A DNA stretch of 64,000 bases from Candidatus Saccharimonadota bacterium (GTDB taxonomy: Bacteria > Patescibacteriota > Saccharimonadia > Saccharimonadales > JAGQNJ01), in assembly GCA_036826295.1 (NCBI GenBank), contig DAISWO010000002.1:13963-77962 (forward strand). Direction: 5' to 3'. The translations under genes were made by a program, and so were the position numbers. Positions 2,349 to 43,977 of the stretch are shown piece by piece (the stretch's first letter is position 1; every line of letters starts with the position of its first letter). The notes beneath the pieces are model-generated. The model did not search any database. It worked only from the letters and a program-made list of their open reading frames with translations, and was not told the DNA's origin.

Positions 2349-4310
2349 GTGAGCAATTTTAAATTAGCATCATTTTATGAACCTGGCGGTGATCAGCCAA
2401 AGGCTATTGAGTCTTTGATCACCGGTTTAAGCGACAAACGTAGCCAACAAACGTTACTAGGTGTTACCGGTTCAGGAAAGACTTTTACCATGGCTAATGT
2501 AGTTGCTCGTGTAAATAAACCAACTCTAGTGTTGGCGCACAATAAAACCTTGGCTGCACAGTTATACAACGAATTTAAAAATTATTTTCCCCATAACGCT
2601 GTTCATTACTTTGTAAGCTATTTTGATTATTACCAGCCCGAGGCATATATAGCTCGTTCAGATACATTTATAGAGAAAGATAGCCAGATCAACGAAGAAA
2701 TCGATAGATTGCGCCACGCAGCAACTGATTCACTCTTGACACGAAAGGATGTATTAATCGTAGCGAGTGTTAGTTGTATTTACGGTATTGGTTCTGTAGA
2801 GGATTATGGAAATCTGGCGTTAACAGTTAAAGTTGGCGAGCGTCGTGTTCGTGATAAGTTTTTGAGACAGATGACGGATATTCAGTATCAAAGGAACGAC
2901 ATTGATTTTCATAGAGGGACCTTTAGAGTTCGTGGTGATGTGGTTGATGTCTATCCGGCAAGCGAGGAGTTGGCATATAGAATAGAATTTTTTGGAGATG
3001 AAGTAGAGCGGATTTTACAGATAGACCCACTTACAGCCGAAGTGCTAAAAAAACCACCAGTTTTAAGTATTTTTCCTAGTAGTCACTACGTCACGCCTGA
3101 AGCAAAATTGAAACTAGCAATGAAACAAATAGAAAACGAGCTTTCTGATAGATTGAGTACTTTCAAAAAAAATGGACAACTACTGGAGGCTCAACGTCTA
3201 GAACAACGAACTAGATTCGATCTAGAAATGTTGCAAGAAACAGGTTTTGTCAAAGGAATCGAGAACTACAGTCGGTATTTAACAAATCGTGAACAAGGAC
3301 AACAACCAGCTACTTTATTAGACTATTTTCCTGACGATTACTTGATGTTTATCGATGAGTCACATATGACTATCCCTCAAGTGAGAGGTATGTATAACGG
3401 TGATCGGTCTAGGAAAGAAGTGTTAGTGGAGCATGGTTTTCGCCTGCCTAGTGCTCTAGATAACCGACCATTAACTTTTGTTGAGTTCGAAAAGCATATA
3501 AATAATGTCATCTACGTTAGCGCAACGCCTGCTGATTATGAATTGTCGCGCAGCGGTAAACCTATTGAGCAAGTAATTCGTCCAACAGGACTGGTAGATC
3601 CAGAAGTTATCGTCAGACCAGTAGAGAACCAAGTTGATGACCTCATTTCAGAGATAAGGAAATCTGTCGACAAACGTCATCGTGTGCTAGTAACAACTCT
3701 TACGAAACGAATGTCAGAAGACCTAACAGATTATCTTAAAGAATTGAATATCAAAGTAGCTTACTTACACAGCGGTGTCGACACGTTAGAGCGGTCTGAT
3801 ATTTTACGTGACTTAAGATTAGGTACTTTCGATGTGCTCGTTGGGATTAACCTACTCCGAGAAGGGCTAGATTTACCAGAGGTTAGTCTTGTAGCCATTT
3901 TAGATGCAGATAAAGAAGGTTTTCTTCGTAGTGATCAAGCACTCATCCAAACGATAGGCCGAGCGGCGAGACATGTTGAAGGCCGCGTAATTATGTATGC
4001 CGATCATGTGACGGGAAGCATGAAGCGTGCAATTTCAGAAACAGATCGACGTCGGGATAAACAGATTGCATACAATAAAGCCAACAATATAACTCCTAAG
4101 GGCATAGCCAAAGCTATCGAGACTAGTATGCTCGCAAATGTAGAAAAGCCAGACAAGAAAAAACTTAATCTTAATAAAATTCCAAAGGATGAGTACGGCT
4201 CACTAGTACGGGATTTGACATCACAAATGGAACTGGCGTCAGCTAATCTTCAGTTTGAAAAAGCCGCTGAGCTCCGCGACCTTATTAAAAAGATTAAAGA
4301 TAAAATCTAA
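2349..4310 (+). CDS. uvrB: excinuclease ABC subunit B
   Basis: GSGKT Walker A, the YYQPEAY region, helicase motifs and a C-terminal UVR motif (FEKAAELRD). GTG start. Confidence 0.97.
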
Positions 4311-5356
4311 GTTGAGATTCCATCAAGCGTATTAACGGTATTGCTATCGTACAAGATTCTAGATACAGCTCGACCATTTCTAACAGGGTTAACAACTATG
4401 CCGTGCGAGCGTCCTTTGACTGGGTAAATGGAAAGATTGCCGAAATCTTCGCTCAGTCCGTTCCACATTTCTAATTCCCCGACAGGGTCTTTTTCACCAA
4501 TTAAGACGCCGAACTTCGAATGTTTTGTTTTTGATAGCATATCTCTGATGTCGTAAGGATCGCTACCCGATATTATATCTACAGCTAAACTACCCAATGG
4601 ATAAAGGTCATCTTTAGTGAAATGGCCTGATTCCCACAAACTCTTCAATAAGCTAAAAGTTCTTTTAGGCGGCGTACGAGCAATTTCAACGAAAGCGTCT
4701 GGGGTAACAGAAAGCATAAATCGTCCGAATTTTTTCCAATGGGCAAGCTTATCAGAATCTGCTCCTCTCTCAACTAGCGCACAAGCGTTAAGAACACCGC
4801 CCGCTACATTACGCAATCTATCCAACTTCATATTGAGAATAATTTCTTTAGTTATGATGGTACCCATTGAGGTTGACGCGAAAATAATTGGTGACTCTTC
4901 TGGGATATTTTCATCAATATACTGAGTTCTAGAAAAACCCATACCCTGTAAGTCGTGTTGATGGCGGTCTTTGTGGCCGTAGCGTTCTGAATCGGGACCG
5001 TAACCGTCTGTGGCAATACCATGGATTTGGGCATGCGGTATATAACGGGCGATAGTGTGCTGAAACTTTTGACCAATGCCATATTCCGCGTGCTCTATAA
5101 AACCAGGAAGGATAACAATATGCGGCGGATTATGGACTTCAACTCGAGGTAGGGTTGCGTATATATTCAGATGGTAACCGTCAATTGGGACATGTAATCT
5201 CTCGGACCTATCGGATACTGAATCTTGAGGATCGGCGTGAATTTGAAGTCCGTTCGATAAGGCAAGAGGTTTTCGTAGAAGACTATTCTGAATATCTGTA
5301 TCTTCAACGATTAAACCACCATGGTGAGTTTCGAATCTTTGATCGTTAGTAGACAT
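4307..5356 (-). CDS. alpha/beta-hydrolase-fold-like protein (putative)
   Basis: The order of ILPGF strand, STSMG nucleophile-elbow-like motif, late GEKDP Asp and RSHG His fits a Ser-Asp-His hydrolase. AGGGGA SD lies upstream. Confidence 0.5.
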
Positions 5357-5449
5357 ATTGTTTCCCCTATGATCAGAATATATTTCTTATTATACTCCCT
5401 TTAAGATATTCAATATATTTGCTATTTATTGTTATACTAGGTTTCAGCA

Positions 5450-5743
5450 ATGACAAAGATTTCAAGAGACGAGATATTAAAATTGGCAAAATTATCTAAG
5501 CTTAGGCTTACTGATGACGAAATAGAACTGTATCAAAAAGAACTTTCAGAAATTCTTGACTATGCCGAGAAGCTATCAAAAGTAGATACAAAAGGCTTAA
5601 AACCGACATCTCAGGTTACTGGGCTCGAGAACGCGACTAGAGCTGATGAAATCTTCGATTATCATGTGTCACCAAAGACCCTCCTTGAAAATGCTCCCTC
5701 GATAAAAGATGGCCAAATCAAAGTTAAACGAGTGTTAAACTAA
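5450..5743 (+). CDS. gatC: Asp/Glu-tRNA amidotransferase subunit C
   Basis: 97 aa with typical GatC sequence (LAKLSKLRLTDDE...). It directly precedes gatA. Confidence 0.9.
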   Translation: MTKISRDEILKLAKLSKLRLTDDEIELYQKELSEILDYAEKLSKVDTKGLKPTSQVTGLENATRADEIFDYHVSPKTLLENAPSIKDGQIKVKRVLN

Positions 5744-5745
5744 CT

Positions 5746-7170
5746 ATGAAGACTTGGCCAAAAATTAGTGAAATAGCAGAGGGGGTCCAGTCAGGGAAAA
5801 TTACAGCCCTAAAAAATGTCACCGACGCCTTCGAGCTACTCGAAAAATTAGAAGCATATAAAACTGTGATTTCTTTGACTAAAGAGCGAGCTTTAAAACG
5901 GGCAAAAGAAATTGACGAGAGAGTAAAAAATAATGAAAATGTCGGAACATTAGCAGGTGTTCCATTCATCGCAAAAGATAACTTTCTAACTTTTGGTGGC
6001 GATACCACCGCAGCTAGTAATATATTGAAAGGCTTTAAGGCCCCGTATCAGTCTACGGCAATTAACCTTCTTGAAGCGGAAGGTGCAATTTGTATAGCAA
6101 AAAGCAACTTAGATGCATTTGCTCATGGGTCGTCAACTGAGAATAGCGACTTTCATACAACTCTTAATCCTTTCGATAAAACACGCGTTCCTGGTGGTTC
6201 TTCGGGAGGTTCAGCAGCCGCAGTAGAGTTAGGCATAGTCCCATTTGCATTGGGTACAGATACCGGCGGATCTATCCGCTTGCCGTCAAGTTACTGTGGG
6301 GTTGTTGGTTACAAGCCAACCTATGGACTAGTTTCTCGATCTGGTGTCATCGCTATGGCTAGTAGTACTGATGTTATCGGCCCGATTACTAAAACAGTTG
6401 AGGATAACGCATTAGTTTTAGATGTAATCTCAGGAAAAGATAAATTAGATTCAACTACCATCAGTAAAGATCCCGAAGGATATTTACTTTCTGAAGATGA
6501 GATGAAAGGAAAAACAGTTGGCGTAGTATCTGAGCTTATGGGAGAAGGCGTAGACACCAAAGTTAAAGAAGCAGTTCAAAGTTCGATAGAAAAGCTAATA
6601 ACGCAAGGCGTTAAAGTTAAGGAGGTCAGTCTTGAAAGCCTTCCTATAGCTTTAGCTGTATATTATGTAGTCGTACCTGCGGAAATAAGCAGTAATCTTA
6701 TGCGCTATGATGGCCAGAGATATGGTTATAGCTCAAAAAGCGCGAGTAATTTGGATGAAAGCTATGAGTATAGTAGATCAGAAGGATTTGGGGCAGAAGC
6801 AAAACGTAGAATCATGATAGGAACATATGTACTGAGTAGTGGGTATTACGACGCCTATTATAAAAAAGCCCAGACTGTTAGGACCAAGTTAATTAACGAG
6901 TTTTCTAAAGCGTTTGAAGATGTAGATTTCTTGATTTCTCCAACCGCACCAACTCCGGCGTTCAAAATTGGAGAGAACGCAGGCGATCCTTTGCAAATGT
7001 ATTTGGTAGACGTCATGACGGTTGGTGCTAGCCTAGTAGGCGTCCCCGCCATAAGTTTGCCTATTGGTTCTGCGGATGGCTTACCAGTGGGCATGCAGGT
7101 CATGTCTTATCAAAAAAACGACAAGGCACTGTTGAATTTTGCATCATTAATTGAAAGAGGAGAACAATGA
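5746..7170 (+). CDS. gatA: Asp/Glu-tRNA amidotransferase subunit A
   Basis: Amidase signature [11 protein letters not shown] and GTDTGGSIR. Confidence 0.95.
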
Positions 7171-26475: not shown

Positions 26476-26503
26476 GGCATTCTTGACCCATGTCAAGAAT
26501 GCC
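26476..26503. repeat. perfect palindrome GGCATTCTTGAC-CCAT-GTCAAGAATGCC (copy 1)
   Basis: Read directly: 12-bp arms and a 4-nt centre. On the minus strand it is followed by TTTTA. Confidence 0.85.
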
Positions 26504-26540
26504 AAACGTACATCATTACTAGAACAGCCCATAACAGCAT
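26493..26540 (-). CDS. candidate 15-codon hydrophobic micro-ORF (MLLWAVLVMMYVWHS)
   Basis: AGGAG (complement of 26547-26551) lies 6 nt upstream of the ATG. The stop lies inside the palindrome-1 hairpin. Not in the ORF track. Confidence 0.25.
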   Translation of the reverse strand: MLLWAVLVMMYVWHS

Positions 26541-26588
26541 ATATTGCTCCTATTTATTGCAGTCCTGATTAAAGAATGTTATTAAGCT

Positions 26589-26614
26589 GCACTCTTGACC
26601 CATGTCAAGACTGC
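26589..26614. repeat. palindrome GCACTCTTGAC-CCAT-GTCAAGACTGC (copy 2, one mismatched pair)
   Basis: The core TCTTGACCCATGTCAAGA is identical to copy 1, located 112 bp away. Its left arm equals the CIRCE left half plus TTGAC. Confidence 0.85.
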
Positions 26615-26766
26615 CAAGTACTTACATGCACTAATACATCTATCAGCGTACAGTTGACCTCTACTTTCTCCAGTCCAACCAGTAGTAGCCATAGCTACAA
26701 CTGGTTCAGGGCTTCAAAACTATAGTCCAACTGCATCACTGCTAACTGCATTATTGCACACAAGTA

Positions 26767-26793
26767 TTGGCACTCTTGACAGGAGAGTGCTAA
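26767..26793 (+). promoter_or_regulatory. CIRCE (HrcA-operator) element upstream of clpC
   Basis: TTGGCACTC-N9-GAGTGCTAA matches the consensus TTAGCACTC-N9-GAGTGCTAA at 17 of 18 positions. Confidence 0.8.
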
Positions 26794-26804
26794 TTTCATA
26801 ATAT
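26776..26804 (+). promoter_or_regulatory. candidate clpC promoter (TTGACA-17-TAATAT) embedded in CIRCE
   Basis: The -35 lies in the CIRCE spacer (26776-26781) and the -10 at 26799-26804. A 5' hairpin GTATACGA-TTATTG-TCGTATAC spans 26807-26828. Confidence 0.6.
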
Positions 26805-26855
26805 GGGTATACGATTATTGTCGTATACAAAATTAATTCGAGGGATAATTAATAC

Positions 26856-29354: not shown

Positions 29355-30323
29355 ATGAGATTGAATAAAAAAGTATTTAGTCTGTTGCCGATAATAATTC
29401 TATTGGCAATTGGTGTTGGCTTCGTTTATAGACAATCTATATTTGATTGGTACAGGTTGTGGTCATATGATCCACCTGCTAGCATCAAGCAAGTCGCGAA
29501 AAAAGCTACCATGACCGAAGACGGAAAGAGGAACTTCTATGTTATGCATCCTGTTGTTTCAAGCGGGACTGACTTTAACGATAAATGCCGAAATGATATG
29601 GCTAATGAATATTCGATAATTTTAGGATGCTATATAAGTAATGACGGGATTTATTTATACGACGTAGATGATAAGCGGTTGAAAGGAATTGTTGAAGTAA
29701 CAGCGGCACATGAAATGCTGCATTCGGCTTACGATCGATTAAGCGCTAGCGAGAAACAAAAAGTAGACGAGATGACTAGTCAAACGATACTAAATGTCTC
29801 AGACAATAGGATAAAAAAGACTGTTGAGCAATACAGGAAGCAAGATCCTTCTAGCGTGCCAAATGAACTGCATTCCATACTGGGCACTGAAGTAGCCGAA
29901 CTCCCGCAGGAACTTGAAAATTATTATAAGAAGTATTTTGCTGATCGATCGGTTGTTACTAGTTTGTCGGCAGGTTATGAGACAGAATTTAGTACCAGAC
30001 AAAGCAAGGCGGAACAGATTGAATTGCAGATTTCTGGTCTTAAGACTGAAATTGAGACGAATCAAAAGTTAGTGAACGACAAAAGATTTCAACTAGAAAA
30101 TGATAAAGCAGAACTTGATGAGTTATTGGCTGATGGTAAGGCTGATGAGTACAACCAGAGAGTAGATACGTATAATCAAAGTGTCAGCGACTATAATCAG
30201 ATTGTTAACGACCTACAAGCGACAATTAATCAGCACAATGCTCTTGTAAAAGAGTATAGGACTGTGTCTCTGGAAATAAATGATCTATACCAGTCGATAG
30301 ATAGCCGACCAGCAGAACTATAG
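29355..30323 (+). CDS. membrane-anchored HExxH protein with C-terminal coiled coil (putative metallopeptidase)
   Basis: N-terminal TM helix, an AAHEMLHSAY motif, and a long heptad-like Q/N/E/K-rich tail. Confidence 0.5.
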   Translation: MRLNKKVFSLLPIIILLAIGVGFVYRQSIFDWYRLWSYDPPASIKQVAKKATMTEDGKRNFYVMHPVVSSGTDFNDKCRNDMANEYSIILGCYISNDGIYLYDVDDKRLKGIVEVTAAHEMLHSAYDRLSASEKQKVDEMTSQTILNVSDNRIKKTVEQYRKQDPSSVPNELHSILGTEVAELPQELENYYKKYFADRSVVTSLSAGYETEFSTRQSKAEQIELQISGLKTEIETNQKLVNDKRFQLENDKAELDELLADGKADEYNQRVDTYNQSVSDYNQIVNDLQATINQHNALVKEYRTVSLEINDLYQSIDSRPAEL

Positions 30324-30341
30324 TCTGATACAATCTCTATA

Positions 30342-31682
30342 ATGGCAAAAAAACAACAAAAGCTGTATTTGTGTAGTAATTGCGGAGATGAATTCAACGT
30401 TTGGGCTGGTAAATGCCAGTCCTGCGATCAGTGGAATACATTAGAAGAAATAATAGTTGATAAAAGTACTAGGAAGAATCCAAAAACAAGCGAAATTACG
30501 ATAGTCTCGACAAAAGATGCCATAAAGAATAAAGAGAAAAGGCTTCAGGTCGGCGATGTTGATCTCGATAAAGTGCTTGGCGGAGGTTTAGTAAAAGGAG
30601 GTGTTGTATTAATCGCTGGAGAGCCAGGGATTGGCAAAAGCACACTACTACTTCAAATAGCTGATGGTTCCGGCAAGCAAGCAAAGGTTTTGTACGTGAG
30701 CGCAGAAGAATCCATACATCAAGTAGGGCTTCGTGCTGCAAGACTGGGAGTTGATAAGAATAATATATCCCTTTCCGACGAAACCGACGTAGATACAATT
30801 GCGCAGACCATAGATTCTAAAAAGTTTGATCTGGTTATTGTCGATTCAATACAAACGGTATCAACAAGTTTGCTCTCAAGTTCATCAGGCTCTATTAGTC
30901 AAATTACTAGCTGTACTCATCTATTAATTGAGGCTTCAAAAAGATCTAATACCGCACTAATGATAGTTGGCCATGTAACAAAAGAAGGAAGCATCGCCGG
31001 ACCAAAAATCTTAGAGCATATTGTAGATGTAGTTCTGCAACTAGAAGGGGATAGGCATGGTGGCTTTAAGCTCCTTAGGAGTATCAAGAACCGCTTTGGA
31101 AGTACAAATGAAGTAGCAATCCTTGAAATGGTAGAGAAGGGACTGAGAGTAGTCGAAAATCCTTCCAAAGAGTTATTAAAAGAAAGACAAATAACTGACG
31201 GGTCAGTAGTTTTGGCAACGATGGAAGGGACACGCCCTGTGTTGGTTGAGGTCCAAGCGCTTGTTAACAAAACCAGTTATGGATACCCGAAGAGGACATC
31301 TAGTGGATTTGATCTTAATCGTCTAAATCTGTTGATAGCAGTGTTGGAAAAGCGAACAAAACTCAATCTCTCAGATAAGGATATTTATATAAACATTGTT
31401 GGAGGCATAAAGATTTCTGAAAATGCCGCAGATCTCGCTGTCTGTATGGCGATAGGCTCAGCAGCGAACGGCCTAAAACTCTCAGTTAATTCTGTCGTGT
31501 TTGGTGAAGTTGGCTTAAGCGGGGAAGTCCGTCATGTAGGAAATATCGATAAGCGTATTGAAGAGTCAAACAAGATGGGATTTGACCAAACAATTGGTCC
31601 AAAACCATCGAGCTCAACAAAACCATCACACTTTATAGCTAAAGATTTACGTTTAACTCTAAATCACTTTTTGAAAGTCTAG
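30342..31682 (+). CDS. radA: DNA repair protein RadA/Sms
   Basis: CxxC-x-CxxC zinc finger, Walker A GEPGIGKST, KNRFG motif and a Lon-like C-terminal domain. Confidence 0.95.
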   Translation: MAKKQQKLYLCSNCGDEFNVWAGKCQSCDQWNTLEEIIVDKSTRKNPKTSEITIVSTKDAIKNKEKRLQVGDVDLDKVLGGGLVKGGVVLIAGEPGIGKSTLLLQIADGSGKQAKVLYVSAEESIHQVGLRAARLGVDKNNISLSDETDVDTIAQTIDSKKFDLVIVDSIQTVSTSLLSSSSGSISQITSCTHLLIEASKRSNTALMIVGHVTKEGSIAGPKILEHIVDVVLQLEGDRHGGFKLLRSIKNRFGSTNEVAILEMVEKGLRVVENPSKELLKERQITDGSVVLATMEGTRPVLVEVQALVNKTSYGYPKRTSSGFDLNRLNLLIAVLEKRTKLNLSDKDIYINIVGGIKISENAADLAVCMAIGSAANGLKLSVNSVVFGEVGLSGEVRHVGNIDKRIEESNKMGFDQTIGPKPSSSTKPSHFIAKDLRLTLNHFLKV

Positions 31683-42935: not shown

Positions 42936-43313
42936 ATGTCAGATAATCCCGAATTAAACTTTGAAGATGTTCGTTCAAACACAGATTTAGTGTCTCTAGG
43001 TGTTGAGCTCGAAAGAAGATATCCTGAGCTTGAACTTGGGATTCTCGCAGTTATGTCAAGATACGTAGAGACGCAAAGAGGTCCGAACGATATTGATAAC
43101 GCAGTTAATGGTTTCAGGAGTCTGGTTATGAGCGGCGTTAATCATGTCGAAACGATCGAGCAAGAAGTACAGCCTCACCACAGTTTACTTACTCCATCTA
43201 CTTATAAACGACTCGAAAGGCAAGGAGTTCTACCTGATCATAGGGTTGATGTATCGAGGTCTTCAAAGCCGGATTATGGGATCATTGGTAGAATGCTAGC
43301 CCGTATAAACTAG
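42936..43313 (+). CDS. hypothetical protein, 125 aa, acidic
   Basis: ORF with its own consensus promoter. Its stop codon lies inside the clpP CIRCE element. Confidence 0.5.
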   Translation: MSDNPELNFEDVRSNTDLVSLGVELERRYPELELGILAVMSRYVETQRGPNDIDNAVNGFRSLVMSGVNHVETIEQEVQPHHSLLTPSTYKRLERQGVLPDHRVDVSRSSKPDYGIIGRMLARIN

Positions 43314-43336
43314 CACTCTTGACGTTAGAGTGCCAA
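43310..43336 (+). promoter_or_regulatory. CIRCE-like (HrcA-operator) element upstream of clpP
   Basis: CTAGCACTC-N9-GAGTGCCAA matches the consensus at 16 of 18 positions. The spacer contains TTGACG as a likely -35. Confidence 0.7.
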
Positions 43337-43377
43337 ATCATATATTATAAAAAGTGATAATTAATGGAGTGTTTTTT

Positions 43378-43977
43378 ATGTCGACAAGTTCAAGTTCAGT
43401 ATTAATCCCGACGGTAATTGAGTCCGATGGTCGCGTAGAGCGAGCATATGATATTTATTCTAGGTTATTAAAAGATAGAATTATCTTCTTAGGTACAGAC
43501 GTCAATGAACATACGGCAAACCTTATTGTCGCACAGCTGTTGTTCTTAGAGTCGGAAGATCCTAAAAAGGATATAAAACTATATATTAATAGCCCAGGTG
43601 GAAGTGTTTATGATGCACTAGCAATTTACGACACTATGAATTTTGTGAAGAACGACATCGAGACAGTTGGTATTGGTATTCAGGCCAGTGCAGCAGCGTT
43701 CTTACTAAGTTCTGGCACTAAAGGTAAACGATTTCTGCTAAAAAACGCAACAGCCATGATCCATCAACCTTCAGCAGGTACTCGTGGCAAGGTTACTGAT
43801 ATGGAGATTGATCTTAAAGAAGGCATCAGAATCAAGCATAAACTGAACGAAATTATGGCGAAGAACACTGGTAAACCTATAAAACAAATAGAAAAAGACA
43901 TGGATAGAGATTACTGGATGACTTCGGACGAAGCCGTTAAATACGGTCTAGCAGACAAAGTTATCACTAACCGTTAG
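43378..43977 (+). CDS. clpP: ATP-dependent Clp protease proteolytic subunit
   Basis: The Ser ([11 protein letters not shown]), His (MIHQP) and Asp (DRDYWM) triad context. The ATG at 43378 has GGAG 9 nt upstream and is preferred over the GTG at 43354. Confidence 0.95.

Follow-up and report, generated by a model that had tools for sequence, protein, structure and literature searches.

A CIRCE operator in the clpC promoter of a Saccharibacterium and the probable membership of the Clp protease in a single HrcA regulon

Much of bacterial diversity consists of Patescibacteria, Saccharibacteria among them, whose genomes are very small and whose gene regulation has hardly been studied. Which regulator controls the Clp protease of such a bacterium? 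The question is raised by a stretch of 64,000 nucleotides (hereafter ‘the window’) from contig DAISWO010000002.1 of a Candidatus Saccharimonadota bacterium. An initial annotation, made from the letters alone, had noted an inverted repeat upstream of clpC, had taken it for a near-consensus CIRCE (controlling inverted repeat of chaperone expression) operator of the repressor HrcA, and had proposed that the HrcA regulon is ‘extended, or shifted’ to the Clp machinery in this lineage. We put at roughly 0.8 the probability that the repeat is a genuine CIRCE operator for HrcA lying within a sigma-70-type promoter of clpC, with Clp belonging to one HrcA regulon.

The repeat reads TTGGCACTC-TTGACAGGA-GAGTGCTAA (positions 26767-26793) and matches 17 of the 18 positions of the consensus TTAGCACTC-N9-GAGTGCTAA. 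Its sole mismatch is at position 3, where G stands in place of A; this G occurs naturally in 23% of 92 Saccharibacteria sites. A pattern search tolerating up to three mismatches returned exactly two sites in the 64 kb, this one and another at 43310-43336 in front of clpP, whereas 100 dinucleotide-preserving shuffles of the window gave a mean of 0.01 sites and never two together. The near-consensus operator that had been proposed thus stands, and so does the claim that its spacer provides the −35 element of the clpC promoter: an independent promoter scan arrived at the same hexamers (TTGACA-17-TAATAT, 26776-26804, score 10/12). At both sites in the window, the −35 hexamer consists of the first six spacer bases of the operator, and the right arm lies within the promoter spacer.

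The second site, CTAGCACTC-TTGACGTTA-GAGTGCCAA, had also been announced in the initial annotation; it matches the consensus at 16 of 18 positions (two mismatches, 9-bp spacer) and repeats the layout of the clpC site. The gene order around it is tig-(125 aa)-clpP-(196 aa)-rpoB-rpoC. The TAG stop codon (43311-43313) of the unannotated 125-aa open reading frame (ORF) in the tig-clpP interval falls inside the left arm of the operator, and there is therefore no intergenic spacer upstream of it. The true start of clpP is likely the ATG at 43378 (with GGAG at 43366-43369, giving 199 aa), since the −10 element at 43341-43346 predicts a transcription start that falls on the GTG at 43354.

The initial annotation had made its reading depend on the presence of the inverted repeat upstream of orthologous clpC genes. 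ClpC relatives were found by a protein search of metagenome contigs that was blind to the motif, and CIRCE is present in all four whose ClpC is 59-77% identical to that of the window (loci L003, 77%; L004, 73%; L005, 61%; L006, 59%), with zero to two mismatches; it precedes the assigned ClpC start by 87-110 nt (~100 nt in L005). In these loci the arms are kept and the spacers vary (TTGCATTGA, TTGACTCGA, GCTTGACCC, TTGATATTA); the spacers nevertheless retain a −35-like hexamer, and a −10 element follows the right arm. A motif scan (described below) added 22 Saccharibacteria-type clpC loci and 11 clpP loci behind CIRCE, with ClpC proteins 43-77% and ClpP proteins up to 79% identical to those of the window. 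Outside Saccharibacteria, perfect CIRCE sites with a TTGAC spacer stand before ClpC-type genes of Fervidobacterium (L088), Paceibacterota (L090), and Spechtbacteria (L157), and with these sites in view, control of clpC by HrcA may predate the class or reach beyond it.

How far the regulon reaches was assessed with a scan for GCACTCTTGACNNNNGAGTGC, taking one genome per species. It yielded at least 120 loci, of which 82 bear the label Candidatus Saccharibacteria, Saccharimonadales, or Saccharimonadia, 9 belong to other Patescibacteria, 9 to unlabelled metagenome-assembled genomes (MAGs), and 20 to other phyla. These labels, with ClpC and ClpP identities of up to 76% and 79% to the proteins of the window, place the window in a Saccharibacterium. 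The first ORFs after 127 scanned sites encode DnaK (31), HrcA of 232-245 aa (25), ClpC (24), Hsp20 (13), and ClpP (11). A second count took every recognisable gene in the loci, whatever had brought the locus in, and found CIRCE upstream of hrcA in 38/38 cases (many with spacers that the scan had not selected), groES in 5/5, clpP in 10/10, clpC in 21/23, and hsp20 in 12/16; for dnaK the figure is 22/33, the other dnaK genes lying behind hrcA-grpE. One MAG carries CIRCE at grpE and dnaK (L134) and at clpC (L163, with a ClpC 75% identical to that of the window), and a single contig, L127, carries it at both clpC and clpP.

The same collection bears on the promoter. Among the 92 Saccharibacteria sites, TAnnnT lies 15-19 nt from TTGAC in 91 (17 nt in 51 and 18 nt in 31); this register was not fixed by the scan and is therefore independent evidence that the TTGAC of the spacer serves as the −35 element. 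The flanks of CIRCE that the scan left free were likewise reproduced (left: T 89%, T 100%, A 77%; right: T 75%, A 99%, A 82%). Of the two possibilities first raised, an extended or a shifted HrcA regulon, only the extension is supported, because dnaK, hrcA, and groES keep their CIRCE sites in the lineage. To judge from these operators, ClpC and ClpP of Saccharibacteria are probably ordinary members of a single HrcA regulon for chaperones and Clp proteolysis.

Three further arrangements were seen in these loci. The dnaK promoters of Saccharibacteria usually have two CIRCE sites ~45 nt apart (L114 521-592, L097, L184, and L205 7040-7112), the first fused to the −35 element and the second over the transcription start or in the leader. 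CIRCE also occurs at the dnaJ position, before an annotated dnaJ in L205 (10178) and before unannotated ORFs of ~360 aa in L155 (5795) and L106 (2850). In L178 (~3600-4100, reverse-strand coordinates), from a halophilic Saccharibacteria MAG, hsp20 directly precedes clpC with a single CIRCE promoter upstream of hsp20, an arrangement that suggests an hsp20-clpC operon under putative HrcA control.

An inverted repeat may also act as RNA, and one alternative holds that the repeat serves mainly as a hairpin, not as an operator, and stops or insulates transcription reading through from nusA or the 125-aa ORF. As RNA, the clpC repeat would fold with −16.1 kcal/mol, a U-rich tail (UUUCAUAAU) comes after it, and two more strong hairpins lie upstream in the nusA-clpC intergenic region. 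Across 96 Saccharibacteria sites (L083-L202), outer arm positions change symmetrically above expectation (TTG...CAA, CTA...TAG), a weak covariation (odds ratios 3.9 and 6.2, p ~0.01) that could reflect either lineage-specific HrcA preferences or hairpin selection. We nonetheless regard this alternative as unlikely. The arm sequence itself is conserved and fits the HrcA consensus, without compensatory changes, which points to recognition by a protein; pairing at position 3/25 is broken in about a quarter of the sites; the repeat keeps a fixed register with the −35 and −10 hexamers; and the same repeat precedes every one of the 38 hrcA genes. A secondary insulating role of the repeat could exist beside operator function.

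The repressor family is well represented in the lineage, where hrcA genes occur in L087-L202 (e.g. L155 1389-2093; proteins P0001-P0120). The Saccharibacteria protein is short (~234 aa) and matches the Pfam families HrcA, HrcA_DNA-bdg, and HrcA_C; against TIGR00331 it reaches an E value of 1.5e-53 and 182.6 bits, under the curated cut-off of 197.2, and a profile of the short HrcA proteins matches Thermotoga maritima HrcA (PDB 1STZ) with an E value of 2e-32. Lengths are 223-256 aa in Saccharibacteria and other Patescibacteria as against ~340 aa in Clostridiales and Streptococcus loci, and some sources name the short protein only ‘transcriptional regulator’. It is also very common: at an E value of 1e-20 or lower, a profile of 25 Saccharibacteria HrcA proteins matches at least 8000 clusters (90% identity).

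Several observations weigh against HrcA control of Clp in this organism. The short HrcA aligns only to residues 15-104 and 234-330 of T. maritima HrcA, with ~110-130 central residues missing. According to the paper on the 1STZ structure, the missing region reportedly includes the inserted dimerising domain. NCBIfam and Pfam searches found no hrcA among 20 of the larger ORFs of the window or among the genes called in its 8-kb upstream flank, and, the HrcA profile matches being near-equal in score, the copy of the window's organism is not distinguishable among the at least 8000. In L134, the nearest relative of the window with its dnaK region seen, the order (4560-6140, minus strand) is CIRCE, a 75-aa ORF, grpE, a tandem CIRCE, and dnaK; there is no hrcA beside grpE, where other Saccharibacteria have it, and synteny is therefore no shortcut to the hrcA of this genome. 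A further relative, L007 (50% ClpC identity), has no CIRCE (0/1 at this distance), its clpC directly following nusA, and the link between CIRCE and clpC is therefore common, not universal. Most of the clpC and clpP examples, finally, come from the scan that required the motif, and they show breadth, not frequency. The dnaK frame of L134 is broken by several frameshifts, which are probably assembly errors.

A second alternative is that hrcA has been lost from this genome, leaving sites that are mere relics or that serve a different protein. The lack of an hrcA among the genes scanned in the window and its upstream flank favours it, as does the 75-aa ORF that follows CIRCE at the usual place of hrcA in the related MAG. 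Operators matching at 17/18 and 16/18 are unlikely, however, to survive without selection in a small genome of ~40% G+C (the value of the window), short HrcA proteins are found extremely widely across the order, and the window is a small part of the genome. We consider such a loss very unlikely, and we infer that this genome carries an hrcA.

Two other known regulators of clp genes left no trace above chance level in the window. Against its operator, the initial annotation had set the control of clpC and clpP by CtsR in Firmicutes. The CtsR box (tandem heptad A/GGTCAAA-NAN-A/GGTCAAA) has 14 matches with three mismatches in the window against 11.3 expected, none of them near either promoter, and ctsR-mcsA-mcsB was not found upstream of clpC, where nusA stands instead. 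The Firmicute baseline was misplaced, the host being a Patescibacterium of the Saccharibacteria. The CtsR regulon of Bacillota (ctsR-mcsA-mcsB-clpC-radA-disA, clpP, clpE) shares with the window its targets clpC and clpP and the linkage of clpC to radA, but differs in repressor and operator, in having ctsR-mcsA-mcsB where nusA stands here, and in its heptad repeats, which are at chance level here. In Actinobacteria, one factor, ClgR, co-regulates clpC and clpP; it is an activator with a site of the CGC-N5-GCG type. In contrast, ClgR-like motifs in the window are at chance level, with none near the clpC or the clpP promoter.

Downstream of the −10 element, the initial annotation had also placed a 5′ hairpin at 26807-26828. 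The hairpin exists (nine pairs by RNAfold; z −3.1 for the 56-nt leader), and its role is uncertain: the transcription start predicted from the −10 element (~26810-26812) falls within its 5′ arm, and the full stem may therefore be missing from the mRNA. Many of the closer clpC orthologues, and hsp20 leaders too, have stem-loops here that are unrelated in sequence, with weak statistics (median z −0.8, with 18% below −2, in 22 clpC leaders; median z −2.0 for hsp20); the case for a conserved feature is better among the closer orthologues and for hsp20. A function as a stabiliser of the 5′ end is possible.

Further upstream, the nusA-clpC spacer holds two palindromes with long arms (Table 1), each of which repeats the left arm of CIRCE plus TTGAC, with half-sites 14 bp apart instead of 9. 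They lie within a partial tandem duplication of 112 nt (26477-26588 and 26589-26700). Similar palindromes, with spacers of 13-16 bp, precede the CIRCE promoters of L004, L139 (clpC), L155 (hrcA), L170, and L202 (dnaK); the distance between the centres of palindrome and CIRCE is 173-183 bp in the five loci measured, and L139 has its parts in the same order. In all, ~200 nt upstream of the clpC CIRCE of the window is homologous to the upstream regions of dnaK (L202, L170) and hrcA (L155), a homology that adds to the case for clpC as a member of the same regulon. Most clpC orthologues lack the module.

The interval from the long palindrome to CIRCE contains a structured element of ~65 nt with three stacked helices, further copies of which occur in L004 (76-145), L139 (4131-4199, minus strand), L202 (2777-2845, minus strand), L170 (926-993, minus strand), and L155 (1235-1301). 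It has two conserved boxes, TCCAGTCC and CAGGGCTTCAAAA. In the six copies, 89% of the hairpin cells are paired, against 31-38% with the partners slid; compensatory changes are seen in 11 of the 22 pairs, and the covariation score was reached by none of 500 shuffles. The strand is not settled by wobble pairs, with six G-U cells on the plus strand against five on the minus strand. For a promoter of the element, inspection by eye gave weak, inconsistent −10 candidates at 18 nt past the TTGAC in the long palindrome, and on the minus strand no promoter that was consistent. No further copies were found in two more types of hrcA-dnaK locus or in viral contigs.

A search of the clpC upstream regions of the window and its relatives for Rfam families, tRNA, and transfer-messenger RNA (tmRNA) gave no family or gene for the element. 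In the window, the region upstream of clpC gave four matches below threshold (E values 0.08-4.8; mir-234, Prevotella-2, and BTnc201 among the names); these were rejected, as was a match to Ysr141 in L004 (12404-12669), which is sub-threshold, unrelated, and far from clpC. Two other loci, L105 and L168, have a different and longer conserved region of ~300 nt between nusA and the clpC CIRCE, with compensatory hairpins (e.g. CCAGGACCTTTTG...CAAAAGGTCCTGG vs CCAAGGTCTTTTG...CAAAAGACCTTGG) and with CCAGGGCT; it matches no Rfam, tRNA, or tmRNA entry.

A more speculative reading, which we consider less likely than not, is that these parts form a composite cassette of ~200 nt (~320 nt in the window with its duplicated palindrome) common to some hrcA, dnaK, and clpC promoters of Saccharibacteria: a CIRCE-like palindrome with half-sites 13-16 bp apart, ~17 helical turns upstream; a covarying hairpin RNA of ~65 nt; and the CIRCE promoter. 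The palindrome might be an auxiliary HrcA site acting by looping or the boundary of a small RNA linked to heat shock, the spread of the cassette might have recruited the Clp genes, and a minimal HrcA without the central region might run the regulon.

The palindromes raise a third alternative, dual control, in which a second regulator acts at the clpC promoter through the long palindromes or through the GTATAC palindrome at the start. The constant distance of 173-183 bp at which the long palindromes stand upstream of the clpC, dnaK, and hrcA CIRCE promoters speaks for it, and the palindrome at 26807-26828 sits where dnaK promoters have their second CIRCE. A precedent is Streptococcus salivarius clpP, reportedly (in work of Chastanet and Msadek from 2003, cited in PMC3842655) under both CtsR and HrcA; it shares with the clpP of the window a CIRCE before the gene, but has a CtsR box, of which none was found here. 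Against a second regulator, no known operator (CtsR, ClgR) matches, the sequence of the start palindrome is not conserved among orthologues, and the upstream module is missing from most of them; we give the idea little credence. That the CIRCE match is a chance one is already refuted by two sites against 0.01 expected from the shuffles and by conservation at orthologous positions.

If the repeats are HrcA operators, as we favour, a HrcA dimer bound at clpC would cover roughly −44 to −18 and, there as at clpP, the −35 element and the promoter spacer, and would keep RNA polymerase off the promoter in the manner of classical steric repression. The same operator-promoter design would drive hrcA, dnaK (mostly with two CIRCE sites, one of them over the start), dnaJ, hsp20, and groES in Saccharibacteria. 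By analogy with Bacillus, whose HrcA/GroEL paradigm is the source for binding, repression, and signal (PMC3842655; PMC7737663), unfolded proteins would titrate GroEL and leave HrcA inactive, and clpC, clpP, dnaK, hsp20, groES, and hrcA would be derepressed together; induction by heat or unfolded proteins would then depend on GroEL. A transcriptome preprint on TM7x reports that ‘clpB’ and clpP change together, which is only a hint.

Both the operator and the family of its putative repressor are of the canonical kind. As in the classical HrcA/CIRCE system, the operator has the form TTAGCACTC-N9-GAGTGCTAA and the putative repressor is homologous, with a match to the same winged-helix DNA-binding domain; operator evidence in Saccharibacteria further indicates an autoregulated hrcA and dnaK and groES as targets. 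The differences are that the putative targets here are clpC and clpP, that the operator lies over the −35 element and the promoter spacer, and that the Saccharibacteria HrcA, at ~234 aa, lacks the central third. In Bacillus subtilis, CIRCE is found past the transcription start and ahead of the start codon. HrcA regulons over AAA+ proteostasis genes are already documented in Mollicutes, where they comprise dnaK, dnaJ, groESL, clpB, lon, pepA, and pip (PMC7737663; PMC5138195). Those bacteria are likewise genome-reduced with few transcription factors, place AAA+ proteases or disaggregases and chaperones under HrcA, and have tandem CIRCE sites at some promoters. They belong, however, to an unrelated phylum, and their targets are Lon and, in the Clp family, ClpB, a disaggregase without ClpP partnership, whereas the putative targets here are the Clp protease itself, with ClpC as unfoldase and ClpP as peptidase. 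What sets the present system apart is that both halves of the Clp protease would be targeted, that there is no sign of CtsR, and that operator and core promoter are fused in a register fixed class-wide.

The literature searched contained no paper joining CIRCE with Saccharibacteria or Patescibacteria, and the only work found that mentions HrcA with Saccharibacteria is an unrelated Enterococcus study. Should HrcA control of Clp be borne out, one repressor would coordinate refolding (DnaK, GroES, Hsp20) and degradation (ClpC, ClpP), in parallel with the independent simplification in Mollicutes. For annotation, clpC and clpP could be assigned to the HrcA regulon class-wide, and for the genetics of cultivated Saccharibacteria a ready stress-inducible promoter-operator design would be at hand (TTAGCACTC-TTGACnnnn-GAGTGCTAA-N5-TAnnnT).

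Table 1. Positions of the regulatory features and genes of the clpC and clpP regions, counted from the first letter of the window
Feature	Positions	Strand	Basis or remark
Two long-arm palindromes, GCAYTCTTGAC-CCAT-GTCAAGAMTGC, 26476-26503 and 26589-26615	26476..26615	.	Sequence
Structured element, ~65 nt, three stacked helices	26660..26728	+ (not settled)	Between long palindrome and CIRCE
CIRCE operator on the clpC promoter (17/18)	26767..26793	.	Pattern search; conservation in L003-L006 and 22 Saccharibacteria-type clpC loci
−35 element TTGACA, opening the CIRCE spacer	26776..26781	+	Promoter scan
−10 element TAATAT, 17 nt from −35, 5 nt past the right arm	26799..26804	+	Promoter scan
Stem-loop or palindrome GTATACGA-TTATTG-TCGTATAC	26807..26828	+	At or just past the predicted transcription start
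Shine-Dalgarno-like GAGGG, 11 nt before ATG	26840..26844	+	Read from sequence
clpC, 824 aa	26856..29330	+	Clp_N, two AAA+ modules, AAA_lid_9, ClpB_D2-small
Probable clpC operon: 322-aa ORF without family, then radA (30342-31682)	29355..31682	+	Gaps of 24 and 18 nt
CIRCE on the clpP promoter (16/18)	43310..43336	.	Pattern search
clpP promoter TTGACG-16-TATATT, or TATTAT at 18 nt	43319..43346	+	Promoter scan
clpP ORF	43354..43977	+	Pfam CLP_protease, E 1e-77

The assignment of the 824-aa protein to ClpC and not ClpB rests on Clp_N, two AAA+ modules, a short UVR-like middle domain, and a ClpP-docking loop of the form [LIVF]-G-[FL]; by eye, the short middle domain contains a UVR-like DYERAA, and an FGF loop (SFGFS) lies at the ClpP-binding loop region. 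Its NCBIfam scores fall under the cut-offs of both the ClpB and the ClpA equivalogs. An identical ClpC is encoded on metagenome contigs from ENA ERZ794914 and SRR2107211. The gene order is nusA-clpC-(322 aa)-radA, with a nusA-clpC spacer of 400 nt, and nusA stands immediately upstream of clpC in L005-L007 as well as in the window. The 322-aa ORF and radA are probably in the same operon as clpC (Table 1), and the ORF may thus be co-transcribed with it. The ORF (29355-30323) belongs to no Pfam family and has only faint NCBIfam matches of the SMC/Rad50-like (coiled-coil) kind; a 322-aa gene is found at the same place on two other contigs with an identical ClpC.

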